64,000 nucleotides of DNA, taken from Myxococcota bacterium. GTDB lineage: Bacteria; Myxococcota_A; UBA9042; PHBI01; JAWLBL01. The notes beneath the pieces are model-generated. The model was given only the letters and a program-made list of their open reading frames with translations, was not told the DNA's origin and ran no database searches. Below are positions 30,629 through 46,057 of this stretch, piece after piece. The stretch's first letter is position 1. Each line of letters opens with the position of its first letter. The stretch covers positions 160,001 to 224,000 of the forward strand of contig JAWLBL010000004.1 in assembly GCA_041687695.1 (NCBI GenBank), read 5' to 3'. Both the position numbers and the translations under genes were made by a program.

Positions 30629-32671
30629 TCAACCGGCCGCCTGGTGCGCCGCCGTCCCGTCCGCGAGCAGCAAGGCCCGGCCCGAAGTGACCTGATCCTT
30701 GCTGCCGAGCAGGAGCAGCTCGTCACCCGCGTAGAGCGCCTCGTCCGGGCTCGGGTTGATGACGTCGTCGCCCGAGGCGCGGCGGATGGCGACGATGGTG
30801 GCGCCGGTCGCGCTGCGCACGGCCAGCTCGCGGATGAGGCGGCCGGCCGCGGGGCCCTCGGGCGCGAGGGTCAGGCGCTCGAGCACGGCGCCGCGCAGCA
30901 TGGTCTCGAGGTGAGGCGCCACCTCGTCGGGCGGCTCTTCGGGCGAGGCGGCGAGGGTCTCGTCGAGCAGCTCGCCCGCGCGGTCGTAGGCCTCGAGCAG
31001 GCGGGCGCGGTTGCGCCAGGCGATGGCGGCGATGACGACGACGAAGAGGAGGAGGATCCAGCCGCCGGGCAGCAGGGGCACGCTGAGGGCCAGCGTCATG
31101 AGGGCGAGCAGCACGAGGCCGGTCGCGAAGACGGTGACGCGCACGACGACGGCGCCGTCGCCCGAGGGATCCTGGGGCGAGGCGAGCTGGGCGAGGAGGG
31201 TGGCCAGCTCGCGCAGGCGGCGGAGGATGGCGAGGTAGAGCGGCAGCGAGGCGGAGACGGCGCCGAGCCAGACGAGGCCGGAGGGGCCGCCCAGCCAGCT
31301 GGGCACGGGCAGGTAGGGGGCGACGAGGGGGGCGGCGAAGGCGGCGGCCAGGAAGATGGCGACGATGAAGGCGGCGTTGACGCCCGAGGCGAACAGGAGG
31401 TGCTGGATGCGGGCGCGGGCGGCGCCGGCCTCCATCTCGGCGCGCAGGCGGCGGACGCGGCGGCGGTAGACCTCGAGCCAGTCGAGGGCGACGCGGGGGG
31501 CGCGGCGTTCGATGAGGCTGGCGAGGGCGTCGGACGAGCGGACGAGGTAGGGGTTGGCGAGGGCGGAGAGGGCCGAGACGCCGACGGCGAGCGGGTAGAG
31601 GAAGTCGCTGGTGACGCCGAGGCTGACGCCGAGGCCGGCGATGATGAAGGAGAACTCGCCGATCTGGGCGAGGCTGATGCCGACCTTGAGCGAGGTGCGG
31701 AGATCCTGGCCGGACAGGAGGGTGCCGACCGTGCAGGTCAGGATCTTGCCCAGGATGACGGTCGCGGTGATGGCGAGGACGGGGACGGCGTGCTCCCACA
31801 GGAGGGCGGGGTCGATGAGCATGCCGATGGCGACGAAGAAGACGGCGCTGAAAAGATCGCGGACGGGGGCGGTGATCTCCTCGACGCGGTGGCGGTGGCG
31901 CGACTCGCGCATGACGGCGCCGATGATGAAGGCGCCGAGGGCGACGGAGTAGTCGAGGCGGGCGGCGAGCAGGGCGACGCCGAAGCACAGGCCCAGGATG
32001 ACGGTGAGCTGGACCTCGCGGGTGCCCCGGAGGACGACGTGCTCGATGACGCGCGGGACGATGAGGAGGCCGGCGACGACGGCGACGAGCAGGAACAGGC
32101 CGAGGCGGCCGAGGGTCTCGATGACGGCGACCGGCTCGAGGCCGCCCGTCATGGCGACGCCGCTGAGCAGGACCAGGATGACGATGGCGAGGATGTCCTC
32201 GACGACCAGGATGCCGAAGACGAGCTCGGCGAAGCGCTCGCGGGCGAGGCCGAACTCGGCGAGCGTCTTGATGATGACGGTGGACGACGAGATGGCGAGC
32301 ATGGCGCCCAGAAAGACGCTGTCCATGGAGGACCAGCCGAAGACCTGGCCGATGGTGTGGCCGAGCCAGATCATGCTGAGGATCTCGAAGGCGCCGGCGA
32401 GGGAGGCGGTCGGGCCGACGCGCTTGAGCTGCCCCAGGCTGAACTCGAGCCCGAGGCCGAACATCAGGAAGACCACGCCGAGATCGGCGAGGGTGCGGAT
32501 GCTCTCCTCGTCGTGGACCAGCGGGAAGGGCGGGGTGTGCGGGCCGATGATGATGCCGGCCAGCAGGTAGCCCAGGACGACCGGCTGGTGCAGGCGGTGG
32601 AAGATGCCGCTGACGACCCCCGCGACGAGCATGACGACCGCGAGGTCCTGCAGGAAGGCGACGCTGTGCAA
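30629..32671 (-). CDS. CPA2 cation:proton antiporter with a TrkA-C domain
   Basis: GLEFS, ISSS, VEDI, QIGEFSF; C-terminal TGATIVAIRR..NP; GGAGG before a TTG start. Confidence 0.92.
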   Translation of the reverse strand: MHSVAFLQDLAVVMLVAGVVSGIFHRLHQPVVLGYLLAGIIIGPHTPPFPLVHDEESIRTLADLGVVFLMFGLGLEFSLGQLKRVGPTASLAGAFEILSMIWLGHTIGQVFGWSSMDSVFLGAMLAISSSTVIIKTLAEFGLARERFAELVFGILVVEDILAIVILVLLSGVAMTGGLEPVAVIETLGRLGLFLLVAVVAGLLIVPRVIEHVVLRGTREVQLTVILGLCFGVALLAARLDYSVALGAFIIGAVMRESRHRHRVEEITAPVRDLFSAVFFVAIGMLIDPALLWEHAVPVLAITATVILGKILTCTVGTLLSGQDLRTSLKVGISLAQIGEFSFIIAGLGVSLGVTSDFLYPLAVGVSALSALANPYLVRSSDALASLIERRAPRVALDWLEVYRRRVRRLRAEMEAGAARARIQHLLFASGVNAAFIVAIFLAAAFAAPLVAPYLPVPSWLGGPSGLVWLGAVSASLPLYLAILRRLRELATLLAQLASPQDPSGDGAVVVRVTVFATGLVLLALMTLALSVPLLPGGWILLLFVVVIAAIAWRNRARLLEAYDRAGELLDETLAASPEEPPDEVAPHLETMLRGAVLERLTLAPEGPAAGRLIRELAVRSATGATIVAIRRASGDDVINPSPDEALYAGDELLLLGSKDQVTSGRALLLADGTAAHQAAG

Positions 32672-32805
32672 AGAACCCCTCCGACGGGCTGAACCGGGGG
32701 GACGTTCGCAGGCGACCCGGGGCAGGTCAACAACAGGCCGTGGCAGTCATCTCCGGTGCCCGGCATTTGTTGCCGGACGGCGGCCCCTCTGCCATCCTCC
32801 GCCGC

Positions 32806-33066
32806 ATGCTCATCGAGCAGCTCCTCGAGCGGGCGCTGGCCTCGCTCATCGGCGAGCGCCTGGAGGCGCACGGCGCAGCGTTCTTCGACACGCTGCGCAA
32901 GGCACGGCTCATGAGCGAGGCCGAGGTCGACGCCTTGGAGCGCGAGTGGCGCGAGCTGGTCGCCAAGCGCAAGGCCGAGGGGGCGGACGCCGCGGCCGCC
33001 TTGAAGGAGGTGGCGCAGCGCGTGCTGGGGCGCGTCGGCGGTGACGGGGGAGGGCAGGCGCGTTGA
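32806..33066 (+). CDS. Small helical protein (phasin-like position upstream of the ubiB-like gene)
   Basis: Amphipathic helical ORF overlapping the start of the ubiB-like gene. Confidence 0.6.
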   Translation: MLIEQLLERALASLIGERLEAHGAAFFDTLRKARLMSEAEVDALEREWRELVAKRKAEGADAAAALKEVAQRVLGRVGGDGGGQAR

Positions 33067-34739
33067 AGGTCTCCACCATCCTGCGCCTGCCGCGCACCGT
33101 CCGCAGCGCCGGCCGGCTCCGCGAGATCCTGATGGTGCTCATCAAGCACGGCTTCGGCGAGCTGGTCGACCAGCTCGGCCTGCAGGCCTGGCTGACGGCC
33201 GCCAGCCGCCTCCTCCCGCGGGCCGATCGGGGCGAGCGCGAGACCCAGACCCTCGAGACCCGCATCCGCCGCACCTTCGAGGACCTCGGCCCGACCTTCG
33301 TCAAGCTGGGCCAGGTCCTGGCCACCCGCCCCGACCTCATCCCGATGAGCCTGGTCCTCGAGCTGCGCAAGCTGCAGGACCGCGTCCCGCCGTTCCCGTT
33401 CGAGCAGGTCCAGGCCGTCGTCGCCGAGGAGCTCGGCCGCCCCATCGAGGCCGTCTTCGCCGAGTTCGACCCGCAGCCCATCGCCGCGGCCTCCATCGGG
33501 CAGGTCCACCGCGCCCGCCTCGAGACCGGCGAGGAGGTCGTCGTCAAGGTGCAGCGCCCCGAGCTGGGCCGCGTCATCGACCGCGACCTCGAGATCCTGC
33601 GCGCGCTCGCCGGCCTCATCCACGAGAAGATCCCCGAGGCGCGCCAGTTCAACCTGCCCGGCATCGCCCAGGAGTTCTCGGGCGCCCTGCGCCTCGAGGC
33701 CGACTACACCAACGAGCGCGCCAACCAGGAGCGCTTCATCCGCCTGTGGGCCGACGACGACCGCGTCAGCGCCCCCAGGCCGTACCCCGAGCTGTCCACC
33801 GCCCGCGTCCTGACCATGGAGTTCATCCGCGGGGTCAAGGTCACCGACCTCGAGGGGCTCGCCAGCGTCGGCGCCGACGTCCGCGACATCGCCCGCCTCG
33901 GCAGCCACATCGCCCTGCGCGGCATCTTCGACCACGGCTTCTTCCACGCCGACCCGCACCCGGGGAACTTCTTCGTCCTGCCGGGTGGCCGCATCACGCT
34001 CATCGACTTCGGCATGATGGGCGTCATCGACCGCGAGCGCCTGGACGAGCTGCTCAGCTTCCTCGTCGCGCTGCTGGTCAACGACCCCGACATGATGGTC
34101 CGGCTCTTCCTCGAGCTCGACCTCATCGACGAGTCCATCGATCTCCGCTCCCTCAAGCGCGAGATCAAGCAGCTCATCGACCGCTACTACAACGTCCCCG
34201 TCGGCGACATCGACCTCGGCCGGTTCATCAACCAGGTCTTCGAGGTCGTCGTGAAGCACGACGTGCGCATGCCCGCCGACCTCCTGCTGGTCGGCAAGGC
34301 GCTCACCACCATCGAGGGCATCGCCCAGGAGATCGACCCGACCTTCGACCCGGTCACAGAGATGCGCCCGTACCTCCTCAAGACGTACGTGCTGCGCGTC
34401 CTCGACCCCGCCCACCACGCCAAGGAGCTGTCCAAGGACGTCGTCGACCTGACGACCCTCGTCCGCAAGCTCCCCGGCGAGATCCGGACGCTCCTCAAGA
34501 AGGTCCGCAAGGGCGAGCTGCGCGTCGTCACCGCCACCGAGGACCTCACCGTGATCCTCGAGCGCCACGACCGCCGGGTCAACCGCACCCTGGTCACGGT
34601 CTTCTCCACGACCGCCATGCTCACCGGCACCGCCTTCGCCCTGGCCGGCCTCGAGGGCGCCGCCATCGCCGCCTATGGCCTGGGCACGCTCTGGTTCCTC
34701 TGGGCCTGGCTCGGCATCCTCCGCACGGGCGGCGTGTAG
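33063..34739 (+). CDS. UbiB/AarF/ABC1 family kinase
   Basis: LGPTFVKLGQ, AAASIGQVH, VKVQRP, HADPHPGN, DFGM. Confidence 0.93.
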   Translation: MKVSTILRLPRTVRSAGRLREILMVLIKHGFGELVDQLGLQAWLTAASRLLPRADRGERETQTLETRIRRTFEDLGPTFVKLGQVLATRPDLIPMSLVLELRKLQDRVPPFPFEQVQAVVAEELGRPIEAVFAEFDPQPIAAASIGQVHRARLETGEEVVVKVQRPELGRVIDRDLEILRALAGLIHEKIPEARQFNLPGIAQEFSGALRLEADYTNERANQERFIRLWADDDRVSAPRPYPELSTARVLTMEFIRGVKVTDLEGLASVGADVRDIARLGSHIALRGIFDHGFFHADPHPGNFFVLPGGRITLIDFGMMGVIDRERLDELLSFLVALLVNDPDMMVRLFLELDLIDESIDLRSLKREIKQLIDRYYNVPVGDIDLGRFINQVFEVVVKHDVRMPADLLLVGKALTTIEGIAQEIDPTFDPVTEMRPYLLKTYVLRVLDPAHHAKELSKDVVDLTTLVRKLPGEIRTLLKKVRKGELRVVTATEDLTVILERHDRRVNRTLVTVFSTTAMLTGTAFALAGLEGAAIAAYGLGTLWFLWAWLGILRTGGV

Positions 34740-34742
34740 CGC

Positions 34743-36764
34743 GTGGCGCGCCTCGGGGCCCTGCTGGCGCTCGCGCTGACCCTGGCGTCGCCTGCGGCGC
34801 GCGCCTTCGACTACCTCGAGCACGCCTACTTCGCCGACCGCGCCTGCTACGAGGCCCAGCGCCGCCTCGCGCCCCTCGTGACCCCCGCGCGCCCCGACGT
34901 CGTCGCCCGCTACCTCGCCCTCGCGCTCGCCTGTCCCGAGCGCTGGGACCGCCCGTACTGCGCGGACGACCTCAAGCAGGCCGAGGCCGGCCTCAACCGC
35001 CTCGAGGCCCCGCCCGCCGCCAGCGGCGACCACGCCCTCACCCTGGGCGACTTCAGCGCCCTGGTCGACCACCTCGCCTGGTTCGGCCCGGTCGGCGGCT
35101 TCCCACGCGCCCGCCAGCCGGGCCTCACCGCCGAGGTCCTGGCCCTGCTCGGCGCCCCCACCACCTCCGGCGGCCTCATCGAGGACGTCGCCGAGGAGGC
35201 CTGCGACAGCGGCGTCGCCGTCCCCTGGGACCGCGTCGAGCACGACGTCCGCAGCGCCCTCGCGGCCTCGGACGCCAGCGGCGCGCCCGTCGCCGTCCCG
35301 CCCGCGCTGCTCGCCCCCAACCGCCGCGCCAGCCCCCACGCCGGCCCCGTCGACCCCGCCGCGCTCCTGTCCTTCAACAACCCCCACTACCTCGACCTCA
35401 AGCTCCACGGCGACGACCACTTCGGCGTCCGCGCCTTCGGCGCCTGGACCGGCTACCACACCGCCGCCCGCGTCATCGCCGCCAGCCGCTGCCAGGACGT
35501 CCTCGCCGTCGACGCCGACCTGCTCGAGGACCTCGCCGACGGCCTCCCCGCCTTCGCCCGCGTCGACTTCGACGACCTCGCGCCCGCCGAACGCGCCCGC
35601 CAGGGCTGCCTCCTCCTCGCCGAGCGCGTCCGCCGGCGCCTGCTCGACTGGCGGCGCCGCGCCGAGCCCGCCCTCACCGCGCCGGCCGCCCCCTTCCTCG
35701 ACGCCTTCGCCGACGGCCCCGCCACCACCGAGGAGGCGCTGCTGCTCGAGCACGTCGTGACGGCCCTGATGGCCGTGGTCTGGGAGGGCGGAGGGCTCCA
35801 CTTCCTCCAGGACGGCCTCTCCGGCGGTCACCTGCGCACCGACCCGACCTCGCGCGCCGGCCTGGGCGAGATCCGCTACGCCCACGACACCGACGGCCAG
35901 TTCGGCCTCTCGGCCGTCCTCACCACGGCCGCCGGCCACGCGCCGTTCGTCGCCTACGGGGACGGCTTCCTGCTCGGCCGCCCCACCGGCGCGCTCGACA
36001 CCTGCGTCTGGGATCGCTTGGGCGACGCGGGTCAGCCGGACGTCACGGCCTGCCTGGTCCAGCACCAACGCGGGCTGCTGGTCGCCCTGGGGGCCGCGAG
36101 CCTGGTCGACTGGGCCCTGGGCGGCGTGCTGCAGGCGCCTCGCGCCGCCGCCGACGGCTGCTCGACGCCGACCGACGCCCCGCACGCCTTCGTTTGCCGC
36201 TTCCTGCCCCTGCGCGCCGTCGCGGCCGCGGGCTACGAACCCCAGGGCCCGCCGCCCACCGAGCTGGCCGAGGGCACCCTGCCGACCCCGCCGCCTCCCT
36301 TCGCCTACCAGTCGCTGTTGACCGTCCTGGCGGCCGACTTCGGCGGCGACGGCGTGCAGGCTGGCGCGCGCCTGGTCTTCCTGAGCGAGCTCGACGATCT
36401 GGCCAACTGGATGTCCAGCTGGCACTTCGGCCTGCTCACGACCCAGGGCGTGCGCCGCAGCGAGCTGCTGGCCGAGTTCTCCTTCATGTTCCACTGGCGC
36501 TGGGCCGCGCGCTTTCTGGTCAACGCCGGCCCCGTCCTGCACGCCGGCTGGCGCGGCTTCGGCGACGACGTGTCGACCTTCGTCGGCCTCGGCCCCAGCG
36601 TCGGCCTCACCTTCCTGCCGGAAGGCTGGACCAAGATCCCGCTCGAGGCGACCTTCAGCCTGCGCCTGCCCGTGACGCTGCTCGACAGCCGCTTCGGCGC
36701 GGCGGACGGCGTGCGCATCGAGGGCTGGTGGTTCGAGATCGGCGTCGGCCTGGCCTTCATGTGA
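34743..36764 (+). CDS. Secreted protein: zinc phospholipase C-like domain plus C-terminal beta-barrel-like region
   Basis: Signal peptide (ARA/FDYLEH); DHF, HFLQD....GHLR, HD.DG; alternating beta-strand C-terminus. Confidence 0.55.
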   Translation: MARLGALLALALTLASPAARAFDYLEHAYFADRACYEAQRRLAPLVTPARPDVVARYLALALACPERWDRPYCADDLKQAEAGLNRLEAPPAASGDHALTLGDFSALVDHLAWFGPVGGFPRARQPGLTAEVLALLGAPTTSGGLIEDVAEEACDSGVAVPWDRVEHDVRSALAASDASGAPVAVPPALLAPNRRASPHAGPVDPAALLSFNNPHYLDLKLHGDDHFGVRAFGAWTGYHTAARVIAASRCQDVLAVDADLLEDLADGLPAFARVDFDDLAPAERARQGCLLLAERVRRRLLDWRRRAEPALTAPAAPFLDAFADGPATTEEALLLEHVVTALMAVVWEGGGLHFLQDGLSGGHLRTDPTSRAGLGEIRYAHDTDGQFGLSAVLTTAAGHAPFVAYGDGFLLGRPTGALDTCVWDRLGDAGQPDVTACLVQHQRGLLVALGAASLVDWALGGVLQAPRAAADGCSTPTDAPHAFVCRFLPLRAVAAAGYEPQGPPPTELAEGTLPTPPPPFAYQSLLTVLAADFGGDGVQAGARLVFLSELDDLANWMSSWHFGLLTTQGVRRSELLAEFSFMFHWRWAARFLVNAGPVLHAGWRGFGDDVSTFVGLGPSVGLTFLPEGWTKIPLEATFSLRLPVTLLDSRFGAADGVRIEGWWFEIGVGLAFM

Positions 36765-36804
36765 CCGCGGCGCTGGCCGACGCGTGACCGTGGCGCTGGC
36801 CGAC
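36761..36804. repeat. Tandem 21-bp direct repeat (23-bp period) spanning the stop codon
   Basis: GTGACCG(C/T)GGCGCTGGCCGAC at 36761 and 36784. Confidence 0.8.
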
Positions 36805-36940
36805 CGGCCAGGACGGCCAGCCAGCGCCTCGATGCACATCCCTTCGGCCGGAACGCGCCAGGGACGTCGCGGCCTCTCGGTGACCGACGCGCCAGGGACG
36901 CCGGCCGTTGCCCACGCGAGGGCCAGGTCCTCGCGTGCGC

Positions 36941-36975
36941 AAAACAAAAACCCGAACGGCCGAGGCCATCCGGGT
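36941..36975 (-). terminator. Intrinsic terminator of the minus-strand giant RNA
   Basis: Minus strand ACCCGGAUGGC-CUCG-GCCGUUCGGGU followed by UUUUGUUUU; two G-U pairs form only on the minus strand. Confidence 0.85.
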
Positions 36976-36985
36976 CTTTGGGGTT

Positions 36986-39136
36986 GACGAGCACAGCCCT
37001 GTGGGGTGTTCCCCTTCGAAGGGTCTCACGGCCTCCCAGCTGCCACGCCGATGTCACCATCGTCGCGGCCTCCTCTCATCGCGTTGGGCTCGACTTCAGA
37101 GTCTCGGGGTGCCTGCCTGGCGCCGCATGGGTTGAGCGCGCCCACCATGGCCTTGGAGCGAGCTCCGGCCTTCGTGGTCTGCAGCAGGTCACCTGGCGCC
37201 GATGAGGGCTCTCACCGTCGCCGTCCTCTCTTGTCGTTGGCCTCGCGTTCAGAGTTTGACCAGAAGCGTGTGTCCATGGCTCGTGACCTCGTCCTCACGA
37301 CCGTCACGATCCTCGCGTTCCCTTCCGTGCCGGCGCGGACGCCGACTTCCTCCATCTCTCTGACGACCCACCAGCTCGCGGAACCCGGGCTGCCGCCTCC
37401 GGCCCTCCCTGTCGGGAGCGCCGCGCCGTCGGCCAGGCCTCGAGGCGAACCTCTCGGCGTGTCCATCGGGCACGAGGCGAAGAACCAGGCGCCAGCGGAG
37501 TGCCTCGTGGCGCTCCGTGGGCGTCCGCTCGGGGGTCAGACGGCCGACGCGCGTCTCGGGTGGCGATCGACCCTCACAGCGTGAGCGCTGCGAGCGTACG
37601 ATCGAGACCCATGACATCGCGACGGGGTGGTGCGACCTAGGTCGCCTCCGCCATCGTCCGACTCGAGCGAGCTCCCGTCGGAACAGCTCCTCGCGTCCTC
37701 TCGCGCGCCTCGCAGGGGTGGGTCGGGGAGACCCCGCACCACCGTGTCCCGGTCAGACCGGGAGGCCGTGGAGACCACGTCCTCCTTGCCCTCCGCCCTC
37801 GCACCGACCAGCCGCGGAGCGGTGGTTCGATGGTCGAGCGCTCGGGCCTCGCGGACGTCTCCGTCCACGAGCGGCGTCGCCCTCCGACTTCAGCCTGCGA
37901 ACCACGCTCGGTGACCGCCAGGGCCCACCCGAAGGCGAACCGTGACGACCCGCGCGTCCCCTCGTGACCCCGCCGAAGCGGGATCCCCCATGACGCTCTC
38001 GACCGAACCGCCCGCCTCCCGGAGGAGACCCCGTCACTGCCTTGCGAGCAGGGGCGGGTGGCGACTCGAGCCTCGGACGAGCCTCGTGGGTCGATGGGAC
38101 CTGCCGACCAGAGCGCCGCCGCCGCGCCGGGACGAGTCCCGGGAGGCGATGCCGCGCTGGGCGACCGAGGAAGGACCGGCGAGCCGGGCCTTCGTGTCCG
38201 CGAACCGAAGCCATCGTGCGCTGCCTACCGAGCGTCCGAACCGTGGAGCCGTGGCGTCCGAGGGGAAACCCCCCGGCCGTTGCTCCCGCCGGATCGGCCG
38301 TCGACGAAGGCAGCCTGACGCGTGACGCATGCGAGCCGTCGATTGCTTCGGGGCCGGCGGACCGAGGTCCGCGTGGCCCCGCCGGGCCCTCGCCATCGTC
38401 CGGGTCTCCCCGGGGTCGCTGGCCAAGGCCGACGCGTGGAGCGGTCGAAGCGGCTGTCGCCGGTTCGAGCCGCGTTCCATGGGCTCGTGTGTCGCATTGA
38501 TGAGAGATGTCGGGCCGGAAAGGGTCGCTCGAATCGATCCGCTCGCGCGGACGCATCGGAGCCGGACGCCCTCCCTTGGGGTTTGGTACCCTTCGACGCT
38601 TGCGGAAGCGAGCAGCGACCCACACCGGGGTTGCCTCCCCCGGCTGAGCTGCGCCTTCAGGTTTTCTCAACCTCTTGACGCCTTGTTCCGCTCGCGACCT
38701 CTCCGGCCTTGTTTCATGCCGGTAACGCCCTTGGGCTTTGCACCTTCAGAGGGTTTCCCCCACCGGTAGCGGGCCTCGCCTCTCGACGACGCCTGCCCTT
38801 CTTGCCGTTCGAATGCCCGGATTCGACAGTAGCCAGGATACCGCTGTCCTCCGTGCCTCGACTTCAAGGATTTACGCATCCGATGGGTCCGTACCGTTCG
38901 GGCCGGTGTTACCCGGGCTCCGAAGGCCGATCCTCTCCTGGCGTTCACCTCTTCGAGGTGTTCCCCCCCTTGGCCTCGGCTTCATGTCTCCATGAAGCCT
39001 CCTCTCTTGGGCTTCGACACGACGCTGAACGGCGAACCGTCCATCGTCGTATGTGCTCTTCAAAGTTTTAAAGAACCAAGGGAGTGGCTTGCCTCTTGCG
39101 AGTGCTGCCGACCTCCATGAGGTTCGTGTCCTCGTC
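36986..39136 (-). ncRNA. Putative giant (~2.15 kb) multi-domain structured non-coding RNA
   Basis: No credible ORF or codon periodicity; terminal helix 39126-39136/36986-36994; nine GAA/A(A,U,G)G internal-loop helices; UUCG/CUCG/GNRA hairpins on the minus strand; terminator downstream. Confidence 0.75.
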
Positions 39137-39203
39137 GGTCCGCGCGAGGCGGGCCGTGTCGGACCTCCCTTGGGCCGCGCTCCCTGGCGTCAACCCTGAG
39201 GCG

Positions 39204-39233
39204 ATAGTGGATCGCCCGACGGAGCTGCCGCAA
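39204..39233 (-). promoter_or_regulatory. Candidate sigma70-type promoter for the giant RNA
   Basis: Minus strand TTGCGG-N18-CACTAT about 70 nt upstream of the terminal helix. Confidence 0.3.
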
Positions 39234-39256
39234 CCCGAATTTTCGGGGGGCGCCGG

Positions 39257-39320
39257 CTGTGGAAAACCAAGCTGTAGGGAAGTCGCGCACTTTCGCACCG
39301 TCTCCCCAAGTTGTCCACAG
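39257..39320. promoter_or_regulatory. Inverted pair of DnaA-box-like sites
   Basis: TGTGGAAAA (39258-39266; reverse complement TTTTCCACA) and TTGTCCACA (39311-39319). Confidence 0.55.
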
Positions 39321-39608
39321 GAAAGCCACACGTCCGCGCGATCGGCCTGCGCCGCACCCGGTGGCCGCGAGAGCATCGCAAGTGCCTGTTTTCACGTGCG
39401 ATCCGGGACGCGGCCCCGTGTCGCGCCGCAAAAGGGTGCCTCGGACGGCCACACGGGGCCGAAGGGCAGGGCGCGGACGCGGCGCCCTCGGGCGCGCTTC
39501 GGGGCGGGCGTTCGCGCGATGCCCACGCGCGATTGGCGTGATGGGGCGCCTGCGCGCGAAGCGCGTGATGGTTGACGGCGGAGGCGCGCGTCGCTACAGG
39601 CCAGCGCC

Positions 39609-40652
39609 ATGGACCTGCCCGGCTACCAGCTCGACGCGCTCCGCGTCCACCCCGGCCTCGTGCTCGCGCCCATGAGCGGCGTCACCGACTCGCCCTTTCG
39701 CCGCTTGGTCAAGGCGGCCAGCGGCGACGCCGTGGGCCTCGTCGTCAGCGAGTTCCTCTCGATCGAGGCGCTCACCCGCCGCGAGCTGCGCAGCATGGTC
39801 CGGCTGGCCTTCCACCCCGAGGAGCGGCCCGTCGGCATCCAGATCTTCGGCGCCGACCCGGTCAAGATGGCCGAGGCCGCCAAGATCGTCGAGGACGCCG
39901 GCGCGGATCTGGTCGACATCAACTGCGGCTGCCCGGCTCCCAAGGTCGTCAAGCGCGGCGGCGGCGCCGGCCTCCTCCGCACCCTGCCGGCGCTGGCCGA
40001 CATCCTGCGCGCCGTGGTCCCGGCGGTCTCGATCCCCGTCACCATCAAGATCCGCAACGGCTGGGACGAGCACACCATCAACGCCCACGACACCCTCGAG
40101 CTGGCGCAGGACTTCGGCGCGCGCGCGGTCGCGATCCACGGCCGCACCCGGATGCAGCTCTACCGCGGCGAGGCCGACTGGGACATCGTCGGCGCGCTCA
40201 AGCAGGCCTCGCGGCTGCCCATCATCGGCTCCGGCGACATCGCGACGCCCGCCGACGCCCGCCGGCGCCTGGCCGACACGGGCTGCGACGGCGTCATGGT
40301 CGGCCGGGGCGCCATCATGAACCCCTGGATCTTCCGCCAGGTCGCCGACGAGCTGGCCGGCCGCGCGCCCACGGTGCCGACCTGGCGCGACAAGATCGCG
40401 CTCCTCGAGCGCTACCGCCAGATGCTGACCGAGATCTACCCGCCCAAGGTCCTGCCGGGCCGGATGCGGATGATGCTCTCGCGCCTCATCAAGGGCTTCC
40501 CGGGCGCGGCCGAGGTCCGCCTGACCTGCGTCAAGATGGACGCGCCCGAGGCGATGCTGGCCACGCTGTCCGAGGCCTGCGAGCGCCTCGAGATCCTGGA
40601 CGCGCCGGCCGTCAGCGTAGACCCGCGCGCCGGCGTCGCCGAGGCGGCCTGA
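39609..40652 (+). CDS. dusB: tRNA-dihydrouridine synthase
   Basis: LAPMSGVTD, DINCGCP, IHGRT, GDI, MVGRG. Confidence 0.9.
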   Translation: MDLPGYQLDALRVHPGLVLAPMSGVTDSPFRRLVKAASGDAVGLVVSEFLSIEALTRRELRSMVRLAFHPEERPVGIQIFGADPVKMAEAAKIVEDAGADLVDINCGCPAPKVVKRGGGAGLLRTLPALADILRAVVPAVSIPVTIKIRNGWDEHTINAHDTLELAQDFGARAVAIHGRTRMQLYRGEADWDIVGALKQASRLPIIGSGDIATPADARRRLADTGCDGVMVGRGAIMNPWIFRQVADELAGRAPTVPTWRDKIALLERYRQMLTEIYPPKVLPGRMRMMLSRLIKGFPGAAEVRLTCVKMDAPEAMLATLSEACERLEILDAPAVSVDPRAGVAEAA

Positions 40653-40660
40653 GGGGCGCG

Positions 40661-41281
40661 TCAGACGGTCTTGGCCGCCGTCTTGCCCTTGGCGGCGCGG
40701 CGCTGGGTCAGCCAGCGCGCGGCGGCGACGCCGGCGACGAAGCCGAACAGGTGGGCCTCCCACGAGATGCGCGGATCGCTGGGCAGCACGCCCCAGATGA
40801 GCCCGCCGTAGGCGAAGCCGACCGCGACGGCGACCACGATGGCCTTGAGGCTGCGCTCGAACAGGCCGAGCCCGAGCAGGTAGCCCAGGTAGCCGAAGAT
40901 GACGCCGCTGGCGCCGATGTGGACCGCCATGCGCGCGAAGACCCACACGCCCAGGCCGCCGACCACGGTGATGAGCAGGCTCGCCAGGAAGAACTCGCCG
41001 CGGCCGCGGGTCAGGATGAGCCACCCGAGGACGGCGAAGGGGACGGTGTTGCTGGCGAGGTGGGCGAAGTCGCCGTGCAGGAAGGGCGCGGCCAGGATGC
41101 CGGTCAGCCCGTCGAGGTCGCGCGGGACGATGCCGAAGGCGTCGAGGGCGCTGGACAGGATCAGCTGGTCGACGATCTCGAGCACCCAGAACACCGCGAC
41201 GATGCTGCCGATGAGCGTCAGCTGGGCGCGGAGCGAGTTGTCCTCGGCGGGGGCGGGGCGCGAGCGCGGCTGGACGGTCAT
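40661..41281 (-). CDS. Rhomboid family protease
   Basis: APFLH, HLASN, GASG, SWEAHLFG. Confidence 0.9.
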   Translation of the reverse strand: MTVQPRSRPAPAEDNSLRAQLTLIGSIVAVFWVLEIVDQLILSSALDAFGIVPRDLDGLTGILAAPFLHGDFAHLASNTVPFAVLGWLILTRGRGEFFLASLLITVVGGLGVWVFARMAVHIGASGVIFGYLGYLLGLGLFERSLKAIVVAVAVGFAYGGLIWGVLPSDPRISWEAHLFGFVAGVAAARWLTQRRAAKGKTAAKTV

Positions 41282-41421
41282 GGGCGGCTCCTGGGTGGCC
41301 GGGGTGAGGGTGGGGCCGAGACCATAAACCGCCTCGGGGGCCGCGGCCATCCTGTCGCCGGGCGCTCGCGCGGTGGGTTGCGGTTGTCCGGGGGCCGGCG
41401 GGTGGCTAACGTGCGCCGCCT

Positions 41422-43056
41422 ATGGCCGCCTCCGCCCCGTCCGAGCGCCTCAACTACCTGGTCCCGAACGAGCCTCGGTGGCCCATCGATCCGGCCCGCC
41501 CGGTCATCGAGCTGCGCGGCGTCCAAAAGCGTTTCGGCGACGCGGTGGTGCTCGACGGGCTGGATCTGGCGGTCGAGACGGGCAAGACGACGGTCGTCGC
41601 CGGTCAGTCCGGTTCGGGCAAGTCGGTCCTGCTCAAGCTGATGAACGGCCTGCTGCTGCCCGACGAGGGGCAGGTGCTGCTGTTCGGCGAGGACACGCGC
41701 CAGGTCCCGCTGACGCGCCTGCTCGAGCTGCGCAAGCGCGTGACGATGATGTTCCAGAACTACGCGCTGATGGACTCGCTGACCGTCTCGCAGAACATCG
41801 GCTTCCCGCTGTACGTGAACGGCTCGATGCGCTGGCGCGAGATCCAGCCGCTGGTCGACGAGCTGCTCGAGCTGCTCGATCTGCAGGGCGCCGGAGGCAA
41901 GATGCCGTCGGAGCTGTCGGGCGGCATGAAGAAGCGCGTGAGCCTGGCCCGCGCGGTGGTCTCCAACCCCGAGGTCGTGCTGTTCGACGAGCCGACGACC
42001 GGCCTCGACCCGGTGATGATCGAGTTCGTCGACCAGCTCATCCGCCGGACGCGCGAGCGCTACGGCATCACCTCGGTCATCATCTCCCACGACACGACGT
42101 CGATCCTCGGGCTCGCCGACCGGCTGGCCATGCTCGAGCACGGCCGCATCCAGACCCTCGGCTCCGTCGACGAGGTCCGCGCGACGGGCGAGCCGCTGGT
42201 CGAGGCCTTCTTCGGCGGCGCCGGACGTCGCCTGACGGCCGGAGAGTCGGCGACCGAGGCCGAAGCGGCCGCGCGACGGGCCGAGGTCGAGCCGGCCGTC
42301 GAGGTGGTCGACCTGTACAAGAGCTTCGGCCCACACCAGGTGCTCCGCGGCGTCGACCTGAGCATCCCGAAGAACCGGATCACCGTCCTCATCGGCGGCT
42401 CCGGCAGCGGCAAGTCCGTGATCATGAAGCACATCATCGGCATCTTCAAACCCGACCGGGGGCAGGTGCTGGTGTTCGGCCGCGACATCACGCAGCTCGA
42501 CGACGCGGCGCTGCTCAAGCTCCGGACCCACTTCGGGATGCTCTTCCAGGGGGCGGCCCTGCTCGACGGCATGACCGTCGCCGAGAACGTGTCCTTCCCG
42601 CTCAAGGAGCGCGGGCTCGCGGCCGGCGAGGTGCGGGATCGCACGGCTCAGATCCTGGACCAGCTGAAGCTGACCGGCATCGCCAAGCGCTACCCGGCCG
42701 ACATTTCGAACGGCCAGAAGAAGCGCGTCGGCCTGGCCCGCGCCATCGTCACGCAGCCGCGCATCATGATCTACGACGAGCCGACGACCGGGCAGGACCC
42801 GGTGATGACGCGCTACGTCGACGACATGATCGTCGAGGCCCAGGAGCTGTTCGACATCACCAGCATCGTCGTCAGCCACGACATGGCGTCGACCTTCCGC
42901 GTCGCCCACCAGGTCGCGATGCTCTACAGGGGCGAGATCCGCGCCGTCGGCACGCCCGACGAGGTGCGCGCCAGCCCCGACCCGCAGGTGCGCCGCTTCA
43001 TCTTCGCCGGCACCCCCGAGGGCGACGCCGCCGCGCGCGAGCTGGGCGAGGCCTGA
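41422..43056 (+). CDS. ABC ATPase with two fused MlaF/Mkl-like nucleotide-binding domains
   Basis: Two GSGKS Walker A motifs; LSGGMKKRV and ISNGQKKRV; two DEPTTG.DP. Confidence 0.88.
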   Translation: MAASAPSERLNYLVPNEPRWPIDPARPVIELRGVQKRFGDAVVLDGLDLAVETGKTTVVAGQSGSGKSVLLKLMNGLLLPDEGQVLLFGEDTRQVPLTRLLELRKRVTMMFQNYALMDSLTVSQNIGFPLYVNGSMRWREIQPLVDELLELLDLQGAGGKMPSELSGGMKKRVSLARAVVSNPEVVLFDEPTTGLDPVMIEFVDQLIRRTRERYGITSVIISHDTTSILGLADRLAMLEHGRIQTLGSVDEVRATGEPLVEAFFGGAGRRLTAGESATEAEAAARRAEVEPAVEVVDLYKSFGPHQVLRGVDLSIPKNRITVLIGGSGSGKSVIMKHIIGIFKPDRGQVLVFGRDITQLDDAALLKLRTHFGMLFQGAALLDGMTVAENVSFPLKERGLAAGEVRDRTAQILDQLKLTGIAKRYPADISNGQKKRVGLARAIVTQPRIMIYDEPTTGQDPVMTRYVDDMIVEAQELFDITSIVVSHDMASTFRVAHQVAMLYRGEIRAVGTPDEVRASPDPQVRRFIFAGTPEGDAAARELGEA

Positions 43057-43198
43057 CGACGCCGGCCCCAACCCGGCGACACCCGACGCACAAGGTGACC
43101 CGGCCCCCGAGACGTGCTAGCAAGCCCGCCGGACGGAATAGCGGCCGCGGCGCTTCGCGTTGCTGACGGCTCGCGGAACCGGTCAGGAGTCGACCCGC

Positions 43199-44131
43199 AT
43201 GGTGCCCTACATCGACATCCCCTCGTACGACCTCGGCCCGCTGACGCTGCACCCCTTCGGGTTCCTCGTCGGCCTCGCCATCGTGCTCGGCACCATCGTC
43301 TCCGACCGACGCACGGCGCAGGTCGGGCTCGACACCCGCGTGTCGGCCGACGTCGCCCTGTGGGCCGTCATCCCGGGCTTCATCGTCGCCCACCTGTACT
43401 CGGTCATCTTCTACTTCCCCGAGAAGATCCTGGCCGACCCGCTGGTCCTGCTGAAGTTCTGGGAGGGCATCAGCTCCTTCGGCGGCTTCCTCGGCGGCGC
43501 GGGCGGCGTCATCGCCTACTTCAAGATCAAGAAGATCCCGTTCTGGCCGTACGCCGACTGCATCATCTACGGCTTCGCCTTCGCCTGGATCTTCGGACGC
43601 CTCGGCTGCACCGTCGCCCACGACCACCCGGGCATCCCGACCGACTTCTTCCTGGCCGTGAACTACCCGGCGACGCCCGAATACCCCGCGGGACCTCGCC
43701 ACGACCTGGGCTTTTACGAGTTCCTGTGGGCCATCGCCCTGTCGGCCTACTTCTACTCGCAGCGCCTCAAGCCCAAGTTCACCGGCTGGTACCTGGCGAC
43801 CTTCGTCATCGCCTACATGCCCATCCGCTTCCTGTTCGACTTCCTGCGCACGGCCGACATGCGCTACTTCGCGACCGTCGACGGTCAGCTCGTCCTGGCG
43901 CTCGACTCCAAGGCGCTGACCAGCGAGACGGTCGGCTTCGTCGGCTTCACGGCCGGCCAGTTCGCCGCGTTCGTGCTGTTCTTCGTGGGCATCTGGATGT
44001 GGCGCTACCGCTCGCGGGTCGGCGAGCTGCTGGTCCCCGACGGGCAGCCGCACCGCTTCGCCGACGGCACCCTCGCCAAGCCGGCGACCGCCGGGGGCGG
44101 GGCCGCCGCGAAGACGCGCAAGGCGCGCTGA
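43199..44131 (+). CDS. lgt: Prolipoprotein diacylglyceryl transferase
   Basis: GISSFGG, GRLGC..HDH, RH...YE, RF..DFLR. Confidence 0.85.
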   Translation: MVPYIDIPSYDLGPLTLHPFGFLVGLAIVLGTIVSDRRTAQVGLDTRVSADVALWAVIPGFIVAHLYSVIFYFPEKILADPLVLLKFWEGISSFGGFLGGAGGVIAYFKIKKIPFWPYADCIIYGFAFAWIFGRLGCTVAHDHPGIPTDFFLAVNYPATPEYPAGPRHDLGFYEFLWAIALSAYFYSQRLKPKFTGWYLATFVIAYMPIRFLFDFLRTADMRYFATVDGQLVLALDSKALTSETVGFVGFTAGQFAAFVLFFVGIWMWRYRSRVGELLVPDGQPHRFADGTLAKPATAGGGAAAKTRKAR

Positions 44132-44161
44132 GGCGCCAGGACGCGCCAGGCGCGCCGAGGC

Positions 44162-45295
44162 TCAGAAGCGGGCGGGTGAGAAGGCCGCGTCGAAGGGCGC
44201 GGCCGGTGCGCCGCGGGTCACGACGTCCGCGCCCAGCTCGCCCACGGCGGCCGACGTCGTCATGCCGTGGCCGCCCAGGCCCACGACCCAGGCCAGCCCG
44301 GCGAGGGTCGGGTCGCGGCCGACGATGAAGCGGCCGTCGGGCGTCATCGTGCGCAGGCCGGCCCACGAGCGCGTCGGCCGCACCCCCGCCAGGGCCGGGA
44401 CGTGGCGCGAGAACTTGTCGGCGAGCCGCTCGCGCTCGGTGGGGTCGACCGTCGGGAAGCGGGTCGAGTCCTCCGGCCAGCGCTCGCACGGCCAGGCGGT
44501 CTCGTCGCAGGCGCACAGCACGAAGCCCGGGCCCTCGGGGCGGAAGTACAGCCCGTGGGTGACGTCCCAGACGAAGGGCCAGCCGTGGTGCGGCGCCTCG
44601 AAGGCGGCCGTCGCGTGCAGGTGGCGCCGCACCGGGGTCAGGGGCAGGGGGGCGGCCCCGGCCAGCCGGGCGATCGCGTCGGCGGCGAAGCCCGCGGCGA
44701 CGACCAGGGCGTCGCAGGCCAGGGGGCCGGTGGTCGTCTGGACCCCCTGGACGCGACCGCCGGCGAGGTCGACCGCCGTGACCCGCGCGCCGTAGCGCAC
44801 GCGGGCGCCGCCGCGCCGGGCGACGGCCAGGTAGGCGGTCAGCAGGGCGTGGATGTCCGACACCCCGCAGGTCGGGCTGAACAGGCCAGCCTCGGCCGAG
44901 GCGCCGTCCAACACGGGCCAGCGGCGGGTCAGGGCGCCACGCGAGAGCCGCTCGAGCCCCTCGGGGCGGCGCGGGGCGGCCTCGGCGGCGGCGGCGAGGG
45001 TGTCGATGGCCGCGGCGTCGCCCAGCAGCAGGCCCCCGCGCCGATCGCGCAGCGTGAGGCCCTCGTCGACCTCGAGCGCGTCGATGAGCGCGACCGACCA
45101 GGTCGCGAGGTGGGTCATCAGCGGATCCTCGATGACCCGGCGGACCATCGCGGCGTTGCGGCCCGAGGCGTGCAGGCCGGGGATGGGCTCGGCCTCGACC
45201 AGCACGACGTCCCGGACGCCGCGCCGCGCGAGCGCCGCCGCCGTCGCCGCCCCGGCGAAGCCTGCCCCGATGATGACGACGTCCGCGCGCTCGAT
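44162..45295 (-). CDS. FAD-dependent oxidoreductase (DAO/glycine oxidase family); probable ATC start
   Basis: VVIIGAGFAG Rossmann motif lies in frame upstream of the first GTG; SGRNAA, WAGLR, GHG. Confidence 0.85.
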   Translation of the reverse strand: MERADVVIIGAGFAGAATAAALARRGVRDVVLVEAEPIPGLHASGRNAAMVRRVIEDPLMTHLATWSVALIDALEVDEGLTLRDRRGGLLLGDAAAIDTLAAAAEAAPRRPEGLERLSRGALTRRWPVLDGASAEAGLFSPTCGVSDIHALLTAYLAVARRGGARVRYGARVTAVDLAGGRVQGVQTTTGPLACDALVVAAGFAADAIARLAGAAPLPLTPVRRHLHATAAFEAPHHGWPFVWDVTHGLYFRPEGPGFVLCACDETAWPCERWPEDSTRFPTVDPTERERLADKFSRHVPALAGVRPTRSWAGLRTMTPDGRFIVGRDPTLAGLAWVVGLGGHGMTTSAAVGELGADVVTRGAPAAPFDAAFSPARF

Positions 45296-45436
45296 GGCTC
45301 GGCTCCCTCGGCGAGGTCGAATGCGCAGGACTTCTAACGGGTCGGCCCCCGTCGGGCAAGGACGCAGGTCGCCCGCTCGGCGGTCGGCCGGCGGCCGGTT
45401 TCATCGGCGCCGGCCCCTGTGCTAGGCTCGTCCGCC

Positions 45437-46057
45437 ATGAACCCCATCACCACGCGCTCACTGATCGGGCCGCTCGCGGCCCTCGGCATCCTCTTTGCGG
45501 CGTCTACGGCCCTCGCGGGCGACGACGGGGCCAGGGCCGGCAACACGCCCAAGGAGCGGCTCGCCCGGGGTGAGGTCGTGATCTCGACCAAGAAGGTCGC
45601 CGGCAGCGACATCCCGTCGATGAAGGCGATGGCGGTCATCGACGCGCCGGCCGAGCGGCTGTGGAAGATCGTGGACGACTGCGCGAACTACAAGAAGACG
45701 ATGCCGCGCATCGTGGCCAGCGAGGAGGTCTCGCGCAAGGGCAACAAGGTGCGCTGCAAGACCACGCTGGAGATGCCGTTCCCGCTCGACAACCTGACCG
45801 CGACGACCGAGGCCACCCTGACCGTGCAGCCCGGAAAGCAGTTCAAGCGCGCGTGGACGCTGGTCGAGGGCGACTTCAAGCGCAACACGGGCAGCTGGAC
45901 CCTGCTGCCCTACGAGGACGGCAAGAAGACGCTGGCCATCTACGAGGTCCACGCCGAGCCGAACATCGCGGTGCCGGACGCCATCCAGAAGGCGGCGCAG
46001 CGCAAGAGCGTGCCGCAGCTCTTCGAGCGGCTGCGCAAGCAGGTCGAAGAGAAGTAG
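45437..46057 (+). CDS. Secreted SRPBCC/START domain protein
   Basis: Signal peptide; IDAP...W, GDFK.N.GSW. Confidence 0.8.
   Translation: MNPITTRSLIGPLAALGILFAASTALAGDDGARAGNTPKERLARGEVVISTKKVAGSDIPSMKAMAVIDAPAERLWKIVDDCANYKKTMPRIVASEEVSRKGNKVRCKTTLEMPFPLDNLTATTEATLTVQPGKQFKRAWTLVEGDFKRNTGSWTLLPYEDGKKTLAIYEVHAEPNIAVPDAIQKAAQRKSVPQLFERLRKQVEEK

Follow-up and report, generated by a model that had tools for sequence, protein, structure and literature searches.

A large, highly structured RNA of an apparently undescribed family in Myxococcota

Results

An RNA gene in a gap without coding signal

The window analysed here is a 64,000-nt stretch of the genome of a Myxococcota bacterium. Within it, an intergenic gap of 2844 nt lies between a plus-strand gene that ends at position 36764 and a Dus-family gene that starts at 39609. 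The flanking genes have a third-position-phase GC content of 0.94-1.00, whereas at 36775-39550 every phase is at or below 0.86 and the three phases are alike, that is, codon periodicity is absent. None of nine ORFs tested in the arm of the element (Table 1) had a Pfam match. A sequence-only reading of this DNA had described a gap of about 2.8 kb with neither a protein-like ORF nor third-position G/C periodicity, and both points hold. A 305-aa ORF on the minus strand carries a public gene call of 290 aa. In a homology search that scored candidates of 167-534 aa (the best 8000 by words in common), this ORF returned the predicted product of the genome itself and nothing foreign. The 290-aa gene call is probably spurious, and an RNA annotation should take its place. 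No tRNA or tmRNA was found at 30000-46000 of the window.

The minus strand from 39195 to 36982 carries a free-standing ncRNA gene, the product of which is large and highly structured, as had been proposed before; the terminator, covariation and contigs from RNA libraries support this. Because the contigs do not show strand, we assign the minus strand from the terminator, the promoter layout, G-U asymmetry and covariation.

Table 1. Features of the RNA gene in window coordinates
Feature	Position	Strand	Basis or detail
Whole RNA, ~2.2 kb	36982..39195	-	Bounds from the terminal stem (39194 to 36983) and RNA-library contigs
Putative promoter	39204..39233	-	TTGCGG at 39233-39228, 18-nt spacer, CACTAT at 39209-39204; A/T-rich tract upstream
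Terminal stem P1, 5' strand	39163..39194	-	39194-39189, 39182-39172, 39168-39167, 39165-39163; 6-nt bulge at 39188-39183
Conserved 5' domain, ~600 nt	38568..39162	-	Compensatory pairs and BLAST identity
Long-range closing helix, 5' strand	38568..38581	-	4 bp, 3-nt loop, 7 bp; partner 37025-37011
Lineage-specific structured expansion arm, ~1.3 kb	37261..38567	-	At the hypervariable site of the family
Conserved 3' domain	37011..37260	-	Contains a long pseudo-symmetric helix in which one strand pattern occurs twice
Terminal stem P1, 3' strand	36983..37007	-	Duplex with the 5' leader
Intrinsic terminator, hairpin and U-run	36941..36975	-	Scan match at 36964-36951, followed by a T-run

The promoter in Table 1 is a putative one, read from the sequence. 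A strict sigma-70 scan found no promoter. In 10 of 11 homologues, a TTGC-type -35-like element, with an A/T-rich tract before it, occurs at the same spacing on the upstream side of the leader. L002, the remaining homologue, has TTGTCA at the -35-like position, and the -10-like hexamers of the homologues are weakly alike. At the other end, the hairpin and U-run at 36964-36941 on the minus strand were the only terminator-like site that the scan placed at a gene end, which recovers the intrinsic terminator claimed for this RNA earlier; the 10 aligned homologues also show hairpin-plus-U-run ends. The contigs of RNA runs X1 and X3 end at 36982 and 36986, upstream of the terminator. Contig ends are a weak hint, and the terminator may be trimmed off the mature RNA.

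Presence in RNA libraries

In a list of 24 runs, 16 RNA runs contain part of the stretch, and runs of any kind that contain it number 20, from nine studies. In four runs from four studies, contigs covered 36982-39188 (X1), 37018-39172 (X2), 36986-39179 (X3) and 36970-38677 (X4) at 95-99% identity and a word depth of 21-369. The depth of the flanking genes and bins was 0 in all four runs. Such contigs do not show strand, exact ends or level, and in them rare variants are dropped and short tips clipped. A stand-alone RNA is thus present abundantly, as a transcript confined to the element, with the genes on either side uncovered, its level not being read from the contigs. The RNA was seen in the libraries as a molecule of about 2.2 kb, the length that the sequence-only reading had given; as the size of the family this length does not stand, the conserved core being about 0.9 kb.

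Conserved secondary structure

Copies were aligned by profile alignment. Three blocks comprise 154 predicted pairs; in 113 of them both sides have changed, where shuffles predict 65. In the 5' domain, 44 of 60 pairs in alignment A4 and 45 of 57 in alignment A2 were compensatory (shuffles, 24.9 and 27.4, respectively); in the 3' domain, 24 of 37 pairs in alignment A1 were compensatory (shuffles, 12.6), and 93.5% of its cells were paired compared with 80.4% in shuffles. None of 500 shuffles reached the observed values on any measure, and slid controls were 2-4 times lower. Since the aligned sequences are kin, the shuffle controls overstate significance and the slid controls are the fairer comparison. 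Under both controls, the check proposed earlier, whether homologues conserve base pairs or an ORF, came out for base pairs, and no conserved ORF was found.

The core consists of the 5' domain, the 3' domain, which a long-range closing helix encloses, and the terminal stem; this helix and the stem bring the two ends together. In the closing helix, 214 of 223 cells (96%) are paired across 21 sequences and 10 of the 11 pairs show changes on both sides, compared with 42-61% paired and 2-4 such pairs in slid controls. The terminal stem P1 is here a duplex of 22 bp (-33.3 kcal/mol) between the leader and the 3' tail, and an equivalent duplex of 22-28 bp exists in all 10 full-length homologues. Both strands of its outer helix differ among homologues while the pairs are kept, and cognate duplexes are more stable than non-cognate ones (permutation p 0.008). 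The earlier claim that the ends of the RNA pair is therefore right in the form of the stem 39194-39163 with 37007-36983, but not in the pairing then drawn, 39136-39126 with 36994-36986. The latter is a genuine complementarity in this sequence (-17.0 kcal/mol); as a conserved feature it was rejected, only 56 of 117 cells being paired in 13 sequences. The conserved pairing uses the same 3' segment with another 5' partner, 39194-39172. Another candidate partner of the 3' tail, 39062-39053, had 72 of 114 cells paired; the tail of the window sequence is misaligned there, and the block model gives that segment another partner. The leader-tail stem was preferred to this candidate.

The RNA contains nine modules of one kind, in which two short helices, the first of them G-C-rich, enclose an internal loop of 3x3 nt, G-R-A facing A-N-G, and the G-C pairs on either side of the loop are conserved. 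The loops are mostly GAA or GGA opposite A-N-G and may resemble a tetraloop receptor. The RNA also has GNRA-type hairpin loops that are conserved, and several larger loops that are invariant. All eight hairpins picked out in the sequence-only reading were found (39102-39093, 39040-39029, 38999-38978, 38789-38776, 37982-37969, 37866-37853, 37453-37442 and 37062-37049). Five of the eight lie in the conserved core, as helices with compensatory changes in homologues, and three in the lineage-specific arm.

Folding energies agree with the strand bias noted before. On the minus strand, the arm folds at -763 kcal/mol compared with -700 +/- 10 for 30 dinucleotide shuffles (z -6.1; complement, -1.4), and the z values of the 5' core are -5.0 in sense and -2.2 in antisense. 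The 3' core fold is weaker (z -1.4 sense, +0.2 antisense). When 40 of 84 strain variants were compared with the single-sequence MFE fold, which is unreliable at 2.2 kb, four made two doubly compensated pairs, 6 were wobble-compatible, 14 broke a predicted pair and 16 were unpaired, an outcome too weak to count as evidence.

An expansion arm at a hypervariable site

The conserved core of the family is about 0.9 kb long, and its two blocks lie 50-70 nt apart in relatives. The hypervariable site measures 37-142 nt in 28 of 33 copies, 326-432 nt in four and about 1310 nt here, so that the 2.2-kb size results from an expansion of about 1.3 kb at a single site, seen only in this lineage. Variants of the family range from 0.8 to 2.2 kb. 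No homologue of the arm was found in the other contigs of this genome or in relatives. The contigs of runs X1, X2 and X3 cover the arm, which is transcribed along with the core and has a structure of its own.

Distribution and neighbours

BLAST found homologues in 33 of 107 genomes of the class, as the earlier reading had suggested looking for across Myxococcota, and among 151 genomes sampled from the phylum, a covariance model matched 35, including 17 that do not belong to the class. Relatives share 67-75% identity with the 5' domain over query positions 3-578, and the full architecture is preserved in another class. We collected 35 distinct copies; genomes carry one to six, and all carriers observed are uncultured MAGs.

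The neighbours are unrelated housekeeping genes. Among 71 flanking proteins at 19 loci, no family was common to non-orthologous loci, and Pfam revealed no integrase, transposase or phage family. Orthologous copies keep their gene neighbourhood across genera (TolB/PEGA, ThiF/Bax1-I and beta-lactamase), and copies within one genome have diverged by about 25-30%. No match was obtained by blastn in a phage collection (50,697 records) or in a plasmid collection (72,556 records).

Against Rfam 15 (4227 covariance models, including GOLLD, ROOL, OLE, raiA, HEARO, RNase P, tmRNA, 6S, group I/II introns and rRNAs), the whole window gave no match at the gathering score. At 36600-39700, six chance-level matches appeared with E up to 10, the best scoring 24 bits against a gathering score of 90, and 10 homologous loci gave no match with E up to 0.01. 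Thus the sequence-only reading, which saw no signature of rRNA, RNase P, tmRNA or group I/II introns, is borne out, and its novelty survives the Rfam search that could have cancelled it. In the literature, no publication on such an RNA was found, subscription journals lying outside the search. The suggestion of a possibly undescribed class is consistent with both results.

Discussion

To our knowledge, only a handful of bacterial ncRNA classes longer than about 600 nt have been recognized, namely OLE, GOLLD, ROOL, HEARO and a few more. We are highly confident that the RNA described here belongs to a structured ncRNA family, with conserved pairs whose compensatory changes exceed the controls and with no conserved frame. 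The family is spread through Myxococcota, matches no described RNA family and is apparently undescribed.

GOLLD and ROOL are described as elaborate RNAs of about 0.6-0.8 kb or more that are very abundant at times (in one strain, ROOL equals 16S rRNA in abundance), have many helices with tertiary-contact loops and no known obligate protein partner, and are encoded in phages or prophages near tRNA islands (PMC12286853). Large size, an ornate structure and the capacity for great abundance are shared with the Myxococcota RNA. However, the latter has no sequence or structure match to them, lies among housekeeping genes with no nearby tRNA and no phage match, belongs to another host phylum, and has its own terminal stem of 22-28 bp, nine 3x3-loop modules and a variable site reaching 1.3 kb. 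Membership of GOLLD or ROOL through a phage or tRNA-island context was considered and rejected, with no phage Pfam family among the 71 neighbours at 19 loci, no phage match by blastn and no tRNA at 30000-46000.

In the same source, OLE is described as a chromosomal, free-standing, abundant and ornate RNA of about 0.6 kb, found in one bacterial lineage and forming a homo-oligomer (PMC12286853). The Myxococcota RNA resembles it as a chromosomal, free-standing, abundant, ornate and lineage-restricted RNA, but Rfam gave no match. OLE is associated with extremophilic Firmicutes, and genes of its protein partners are linked to it, whereas no protein gene is linked to the Myxococcota RNA. The raiA motif RNA is much smaller, and again no Rfam match was obtained. 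The flanks of rRNAs pair into a long terminal stem, and rRNAs have peripheral expansion segments and abundant GNRA loops. The likeness of the present RNA to them is one of architecture only (terminal stem, lineage-specific expansion site and GNRA loops). SSU and LSU models show no resemblance to it, and it lies outside rRNA operons, away from any tRNA or 5S gene.

What does this RNA do? Taken as a whole, the explanation that an undescribed structured ncRNA family acts as an architectural particle is the best one we have, and we give it a chance slightly short of even. Its functional part, that the RNA may be a stable architectural particle and not a messenger, a cis-regulator or a mobile element, is our tentative inference and somewhat less secure. 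Nine iterations of the 3x3-loop module would build the RNA. Loops and modules would dock on one another, within a molecule or between copies, and a compact scaffold would result, in principle like the assemblies that ROOL, GOLLD and OLE build from RNA alone. Both ends would be guarded by the terminal stem, and the variable arm would point away from the particle in the manner of an rRNA expansion segment, leaving its length free to drift. ROOL, GOLLD and OLE are reported to form homo-oligomers in which A-minor contacts and kissing loops join the copies, and recently solved structures of large bacterial ncRNAs revealed unexpected RNA-only assemblies (PMC12286853). The analogy with ROOL and GOLLD is one of size and ornateness only, because those RNAs are phage-associated and the Myxococcota RNA is not.

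The iterated loops fit a protein-binding array as well as they fit a scaffold. Each of the nine near-identical modules might bind one copy of the same protein, and the RNA would form an RNP scaffold or titrate or organise that protein, as CsrB/Rsm RNAs do with CsrA or 6S RNA with RNA polymerase. The ninefold loop with its conserved flanking G-C pairs and the high abundance of the RNA agree with this, and several paralogues per genome suit a dosage-type function. However, none of the 19 loci has a linked protein gene, and the repeat is an internal loop within covarying helices instead of a GGA in hairpin loops. The sole Rsm-type Rfam match is at chance level (17.6 bits against a gathering score of 52, E 6.9) and lies at 36838-36945 of the plus strand, outside the RNA and on the opposite strand. 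We regard a protein-binding array as rather unlikely. A CsrB/Rsm-type sponge in particular was rejected, as the purine-rich repeats sit in covarying helices and internal loops and the Rsm model scores far below gathering.

A processed form deserves mention, in which the RNA is cut, by itself or by an enzyme, after the 5' strand of the stem and within the 3' domain, and is then ligated, for instance by RtcB, into a functional circle of about 2155 nt that lacks the terminal stem. In one of the four runs, the sole contig (depth 369) is circularly permuted, with 39172 joined to 37018 across one ambiguous letter, and that run has no coverage of 36982-37017 or 39173-39188. Position 39172 is the final base of the main segment of the 5' strand of the stem, and the genome carries at least two full RtcB genes. 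There is also a precedent: DucS of Bacillus altitudinis is reported to be a bacterial ncRNA with linear and circular forms (PMC10504365). DucS is unrelated, its likeness to the Myxococcota RNA being the hint from that one permuted contig, and a circle here is unproven. Against it, the remaining three runs gave linear contigs past both junction points, one of them ending in adapter at 39188. Donor and acceptor sites both have AAGGG beside the joint, as is expected of template switching by reverse transcriptase at the foot of a stable helix, and contigs drop rare variants and clip short tips. The joint would also delete one strand of a covarying helix (37014-37011), and no ribozyme family was found with Rfam. 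Both the circle and this route to it therefore appear improbable. Only marginally less improbable is a bolder picture, in which a chromosomal RNA of an undescribed class, with rRNA-like abundance and among the largest bacterial ncRNAs, would lose its terminal stem, be ligated into a circle of about 2.15 kb and, through its nine modules, fold or self-assemble into an RNA particle with an outward arm that could grow from 40 nt to 1.3 kb. If true, such a circular RNA particle would be an RNA machine or cellular compartment of a new kind, restricted to Myxococcota.

A remnant or non-autonomous mobile element, such as an ORF-less intron or another selfish element whose 1.3-kb arm is a decayed cargo gene, is very unlikely. 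Group II introns have a catalytic core of domains V/VI, carry an intron-encoded protein or its remnant in domain IV, which tolerates large insertions, and are inserted within host genes. Several copies per genome and a central site that takes large insertions, as domain IV does, recall such elements. However, no group I/II intron model matched even with E up to 10 and other Rfam models gave chance-level matches only, the genes flanking the 19 loci include no reverse transcriptase, integrase or transposase, and phage and plasmid matches are lacking. Orthologous copies stay in the same neighbourhood across genera, those within a genome differ by the 25-30% given above, and the arm folds strand-specifically and has no protein homologues. 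A group II intron was rejected as a candidate on the intron models and the arm, and also because the RNA lies between genes, with a promoter-like region and a terminator of its own. That a protein-coding or pseudogene stretch was mistaken for RNA has a negligible chance, since, despite long ORFs such as the 305-aa one with its public call, codon periodicity is absent, the nine ORFs lack Pfam matches, no homologue beyond the genome itself was among the candidates scored, and relatives keep base pairs, through compensatory changes and indels, and not a reading frame.

In conclusion, the family would add a class of large ncRNA from a different phylum. Its compact core of about 0.9 kb suits structural work, and the length variants from 0.8 to 2.2 kb mark a permissive site. 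The very strong covariation gives a testable fold, with the repeated internal-loop motif as a structural target. In sludge, compost, root and aquatic communities, expression of the RNA appears to be high, the word shares of runs X5-X24 being no evidence of habitat. Because of this high apparent expression, its function likely matters for predatory or social bacteria of environmental importance.

Results

The 2200-nt stretch is single-copy within its own 8-Mb genome. Matches were found in 16 of 40 relative genomes and were confined to two blocks (Table), which lie 50-70 nt apart in the relatives versus 1300 nt in the window. The homologues span a conserved leader through to a hairpin plus U-run (about 1.0 kb as extracted), and a profile built on nine homologues recovered 35 distinct copies from the fetched loci. 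The sequence-only reading had proposed a family search in Myxococcota; BLAST with a compact member as query found homologues in 33 of the 107 genomes from the class, the window's genome included. Of 151 genomes sampled from the phylum, 35 were matched by a covariance model built on a 206-position sub-domain, and 17 of these lie outside the window's class. The highest copy number, six model matches on six contigs, was found in a genome of another class (G113), and the complete architecture is kept in a copy from another class. Titled carriers are all uncultured MAGs, named 'Myxococcota', 'Myxococcales' or 'Deltaproteobacteria', plus one labelled only 'bacterium'.

Three block alignments made with MAFFT were folded with RNAalifold, and pairs were counted against shuffles and slid controls. 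In the first part of the 5' domain (A4; 17 sequences, 60 pairs), 88.7% of cells were paired and 44 pairs changed on both sides, against a shuffle mean of 24.9 and 17-26 in slid controls. The second part (A2; 26 sequences, 57 pairs) gave 94.5% and 45 pairs against 27.4 and 19-28, and the 3' domain (A1; 19 sequences, 37 pairs) gave 93.5% and 24 against 12.6 and 4-11. On each of five measures, the observed values were reached by 0 of 500 shuffles in all three blocks, a test that is inflated by kinship of the aligned sequences. The slid controls are thus the fairer yardstick, and they too fell far under the observed pair counts in every block. The end of the 5' domain pairs over a long range with 37025-37011. 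This closing helix encloses the variable site together with the 3' domain; 214 of its 223 cells are paired across 21 sequences (slid controls, 42-61%), and both sides vary in 10 of its 11 pairs. The helix shows the two blocks, 1.3 kb apart in the window, to be parts of one RNA.

The eight hairpins listed in the sequence-only reading are each present, at the positions given there, when the minus strand is read. The consensus holds nine modules, in which two short G-C-rich helices flank a 3x3 internal loop with G-R-A (mostly GAA, then GGA) on one strand and A-N-G, its middle base free, on the other; the module may resemble tetraloop receptors. The 3' domain contains one strand pattern in two copies, which pair together into a pseudo-symmetric long helix. 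GNRA-type hairpin loops are conserved, with several invariant larger loops.

The gap that holds the RNA gene lies between a + strand gene of 673 aa (34743-36761; gene end at 36764) and a Dus-family gene from 39609 (PF01207, E 4e-81). The earlier label 'PLC-like' for the 673-aa gene was unconfirmed, zero Pfam families being found at E up to 1e-5. GC at the third-position phase is 0.94-1.00 in both flanking genes, whereas the intervening 2844 nt show similar GC in all three phases, as had been noticed in the sequence. The gap has ORFs, as does any 72% GC sequence. Nine of these ORFs were empty in Pfam at E up to 0.1. The longest (305 aa, minus strand) had a single protein match among the candidates scored, a 290-aa product with 99% identity, listed without source or name, that is apparently the same genome's own gene call. 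This call, with neither a Pfam domain nor homologues elsewhere, is probably spurious.

Leader and tail form a terminal stem of 22 bp in the window (-33.3 kcal/mol), and an equivalent duplex is present in 10 of 10 full-length homologues (22-28 bp, -35.6 to -49.1 kcal/mol). In its outer helix both strands differ between homologues and the pairs are retained. In a narrower extract, cognate leaders and tails had a mean of -21.4 versus -19.0 kcal/mol for swapped ones (permutation p 0.008). The end-pairing proposed earlier, 39136-39126 with 36994-36986, is complementary in the window but was kept in 56 of 117 cells in 13 homologues, and is ruled out as a conserved helix. In one library (X1), Illumina adapter directly follows 39188, the boundary of the outer helix and the 6-nt bulge and thus a possible 5' processing site.

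Ahead of the leader, an A/T-rich tract is followed by a -35-like element of the TTGC type in 10 of 11 homologues and by TTGTCA in the remaining one (L002); a weak -10-like hexamer lies 17-18 nt past the element. We infer a putative promoter here from the homologue comparison; a strict sigma-70 scan gave zero promoters. The minus-strand terminator of the sequence-only reading was found again by the scan at 36964-36951, followed by a T-run. A 17-nt palindrome (36908-36924 / 36926-36942) adjoins the U-run and may terminate the convergent + strand gene or act in both directions; a 17-nt direct repeat occupies 36853-36869 and 36887-36903. The interval separating the RNA gene from the divergent dus contains a long G+C-rich hairpin on the minus strand (39412-39459), about 180 nt upstream of the putative promoter, for which Rfam gave only a chance-level match (F6, 19 bits, E 5.1).

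The hypervariable site, which separates the closing helix from the 3' domain, spans 37-142 nt in 28 of 33 copies. In four copies of a single genus (L023, L027, L030 and L042; genomes G103-G106) it reaches 326-432 nt, and in the window 1311 nt. This 1.3-kb expansion arm is not junk. Its sense strand is 63 kcal/mol more stable than dinucleotide shuffles (z -6.1) versus z -1.4 for the complement, and this difference bears out the G-U/A-C strand asymmetry of the sequence-only reading, three of whose tetraloop hairpins fall inside the arm. In the rest of the genome and in relatives, the search for an arm counterpart gave only chance-level GC-rich matches. The arm repeats 17-20 nt of the GUGA hairpin in the 3' domain (37054-37073) at 37644-37660 and 38390-38409 (80-88% identity; repeat families D12 and D16), which hints that the arm may have grown by internal duplication. 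In run X3, within a 95-99% identical population, the contig is without 109 nt of the arm; this deletion is a natural length variant and overlaps the hairpin at 37982-37969.

At least part of the stretch was found in 20 sequencing runs from 9 studies, 16 of the runs being recorded as RNA. Logan contigs from four RNA runs, each of a different study (sludge, root, aquatic and compost), were placed on the window, with only the flanks as a silent stretch for comparison. The RNA libraries contain the 2.2-kb RNA together with its arm, and its neighbours are unassembled (depth 0 at 36151-36905 and 39322-40500 in all four runs), contigs of this kind being unable to give strand, ends or level. Since the RNA was assembled and its neighbours were not, this argues for high abundance. 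X4 also has contigs, at depths of 424 and 52, that link the two conserved blocks (about 37255-37260 to 38638-38639) and skip the arm; these probably stem from relatives whose variable site is short and which outnumber the window's form in that sample.

The X2 contig is circularly permuted: 39172 is joined to 37018, going back 2155, with one ambiguous letter, and coverage of 36982-37017 and 39173-39188 is zero. The joint could be a template-switch artefact, as AAGGG is common to both sites beside it and reverse-transcriptase template switching requires such microhomology. A circular or concatemeric RNA would be without the terminal stem, since the main segment of the stem's 5' strand ends at 39172, and at least two complete RtcB ligase genes are encoded in the genome; however, three other runs yield linear contigs extending beyond both joint points and the joint would remove one strand of a covarying helix, so that a real circle is improbable.

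In a Pfam scan of 71 flanking proteins at 19 loci, no neighbour was common to non-orthologous loci, and zero integrase, transposase, reverse transcriptase or phage families were found. Orthologous loci in different genera keep their neighbours (PEGA and TolB; ThiF and Bax1-I; a beta-lactamase-family protein). Phage and plasmid collections gave zero matches to the RNA, and no tRNA was found within 8 kb of its gene. The copies thus appear to be free-standing paralogous genes that are passed on vertically.

Table. Coordinates of features of the RNA gene, library contigs and RtcB genes
Feature	Position	Strand	Remark
Conserved block 1 (query 1-575)	39140-38566	minus	matches in relatives
Conserved block 2 (query 1880-2190)	37261-36951	minus	matches in relatives
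Closing helix	38581-38568 with 37025-37011		long-range pairing
Terminal stem, outer helix	39194-39189 with 36988-36983	minus	pairing in window
Terminal stem, main segment	39182-39172 with 36999-36989	minus	after 6-nt bulge; pairing in window
Terminal stem, inner	reaching 39163 and 37007	minus	five more pairs; pairing in window
GAAA-type loop	39098-39095	minus	conserved hairpin loop
GAGA loop	38784-38781	minus	conserved hairpin loop
GUGA loop	37057-37054	minus	conserved hairpin loop
Putative -35-like element	39233-39228	minus	homologue comparison
Putative -10-like hexamer	39209-39204	minus	homologue comparison
Predicted 290-aa protein (P0001)	37756-38670	minus	public protein collection; probably spurious
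X1, one contig	36982-39188		2224 nt; 95-99% identity
X2, one contig	37018-39172		depth 369
X3, one contig	36986-39179		skips 37971-38081
X4, one contig	36970-38677		depth 29; window's form
RtcB genes (G000, window's own genome)	C23:116352-117653; C39:8218-9348; C23:2336-3481		two full-length, third locus matched in two pieces

Discussion

Rfam 15 gave zero family matches for the window and ten homologous loci, and literature on such an RNA was not found in a search of non-subscription journals. Among known systems, GOLLD, ROOL and OLE, all large ornate RNAs, come closest. According to PMC12286853, their function is unknown, their abundance can equal that of 16S rRNA, and they form RNA-only oligomers via A-minor contacts and kissing loops. 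They have size, ornateness and abundance in common with the Myxococcota family, whereas sequence, structure and host phylum all differ; the phage and tRNA context described there for GOLLD and ROOL is absent at the Myxococcota loci. With neither an Rfam 15 match nor literature, and unlike these three RNAs, the family is filed as a putative new class, in keeping with the 'undescribed class' first suggested.

As for its role, a candidate protein-binding array is the main rival reading, and we regard it as rather unlikely. Our best guess, a tentative one, is that the family would be a putative stable architectural RNA, assembled from docking modules.
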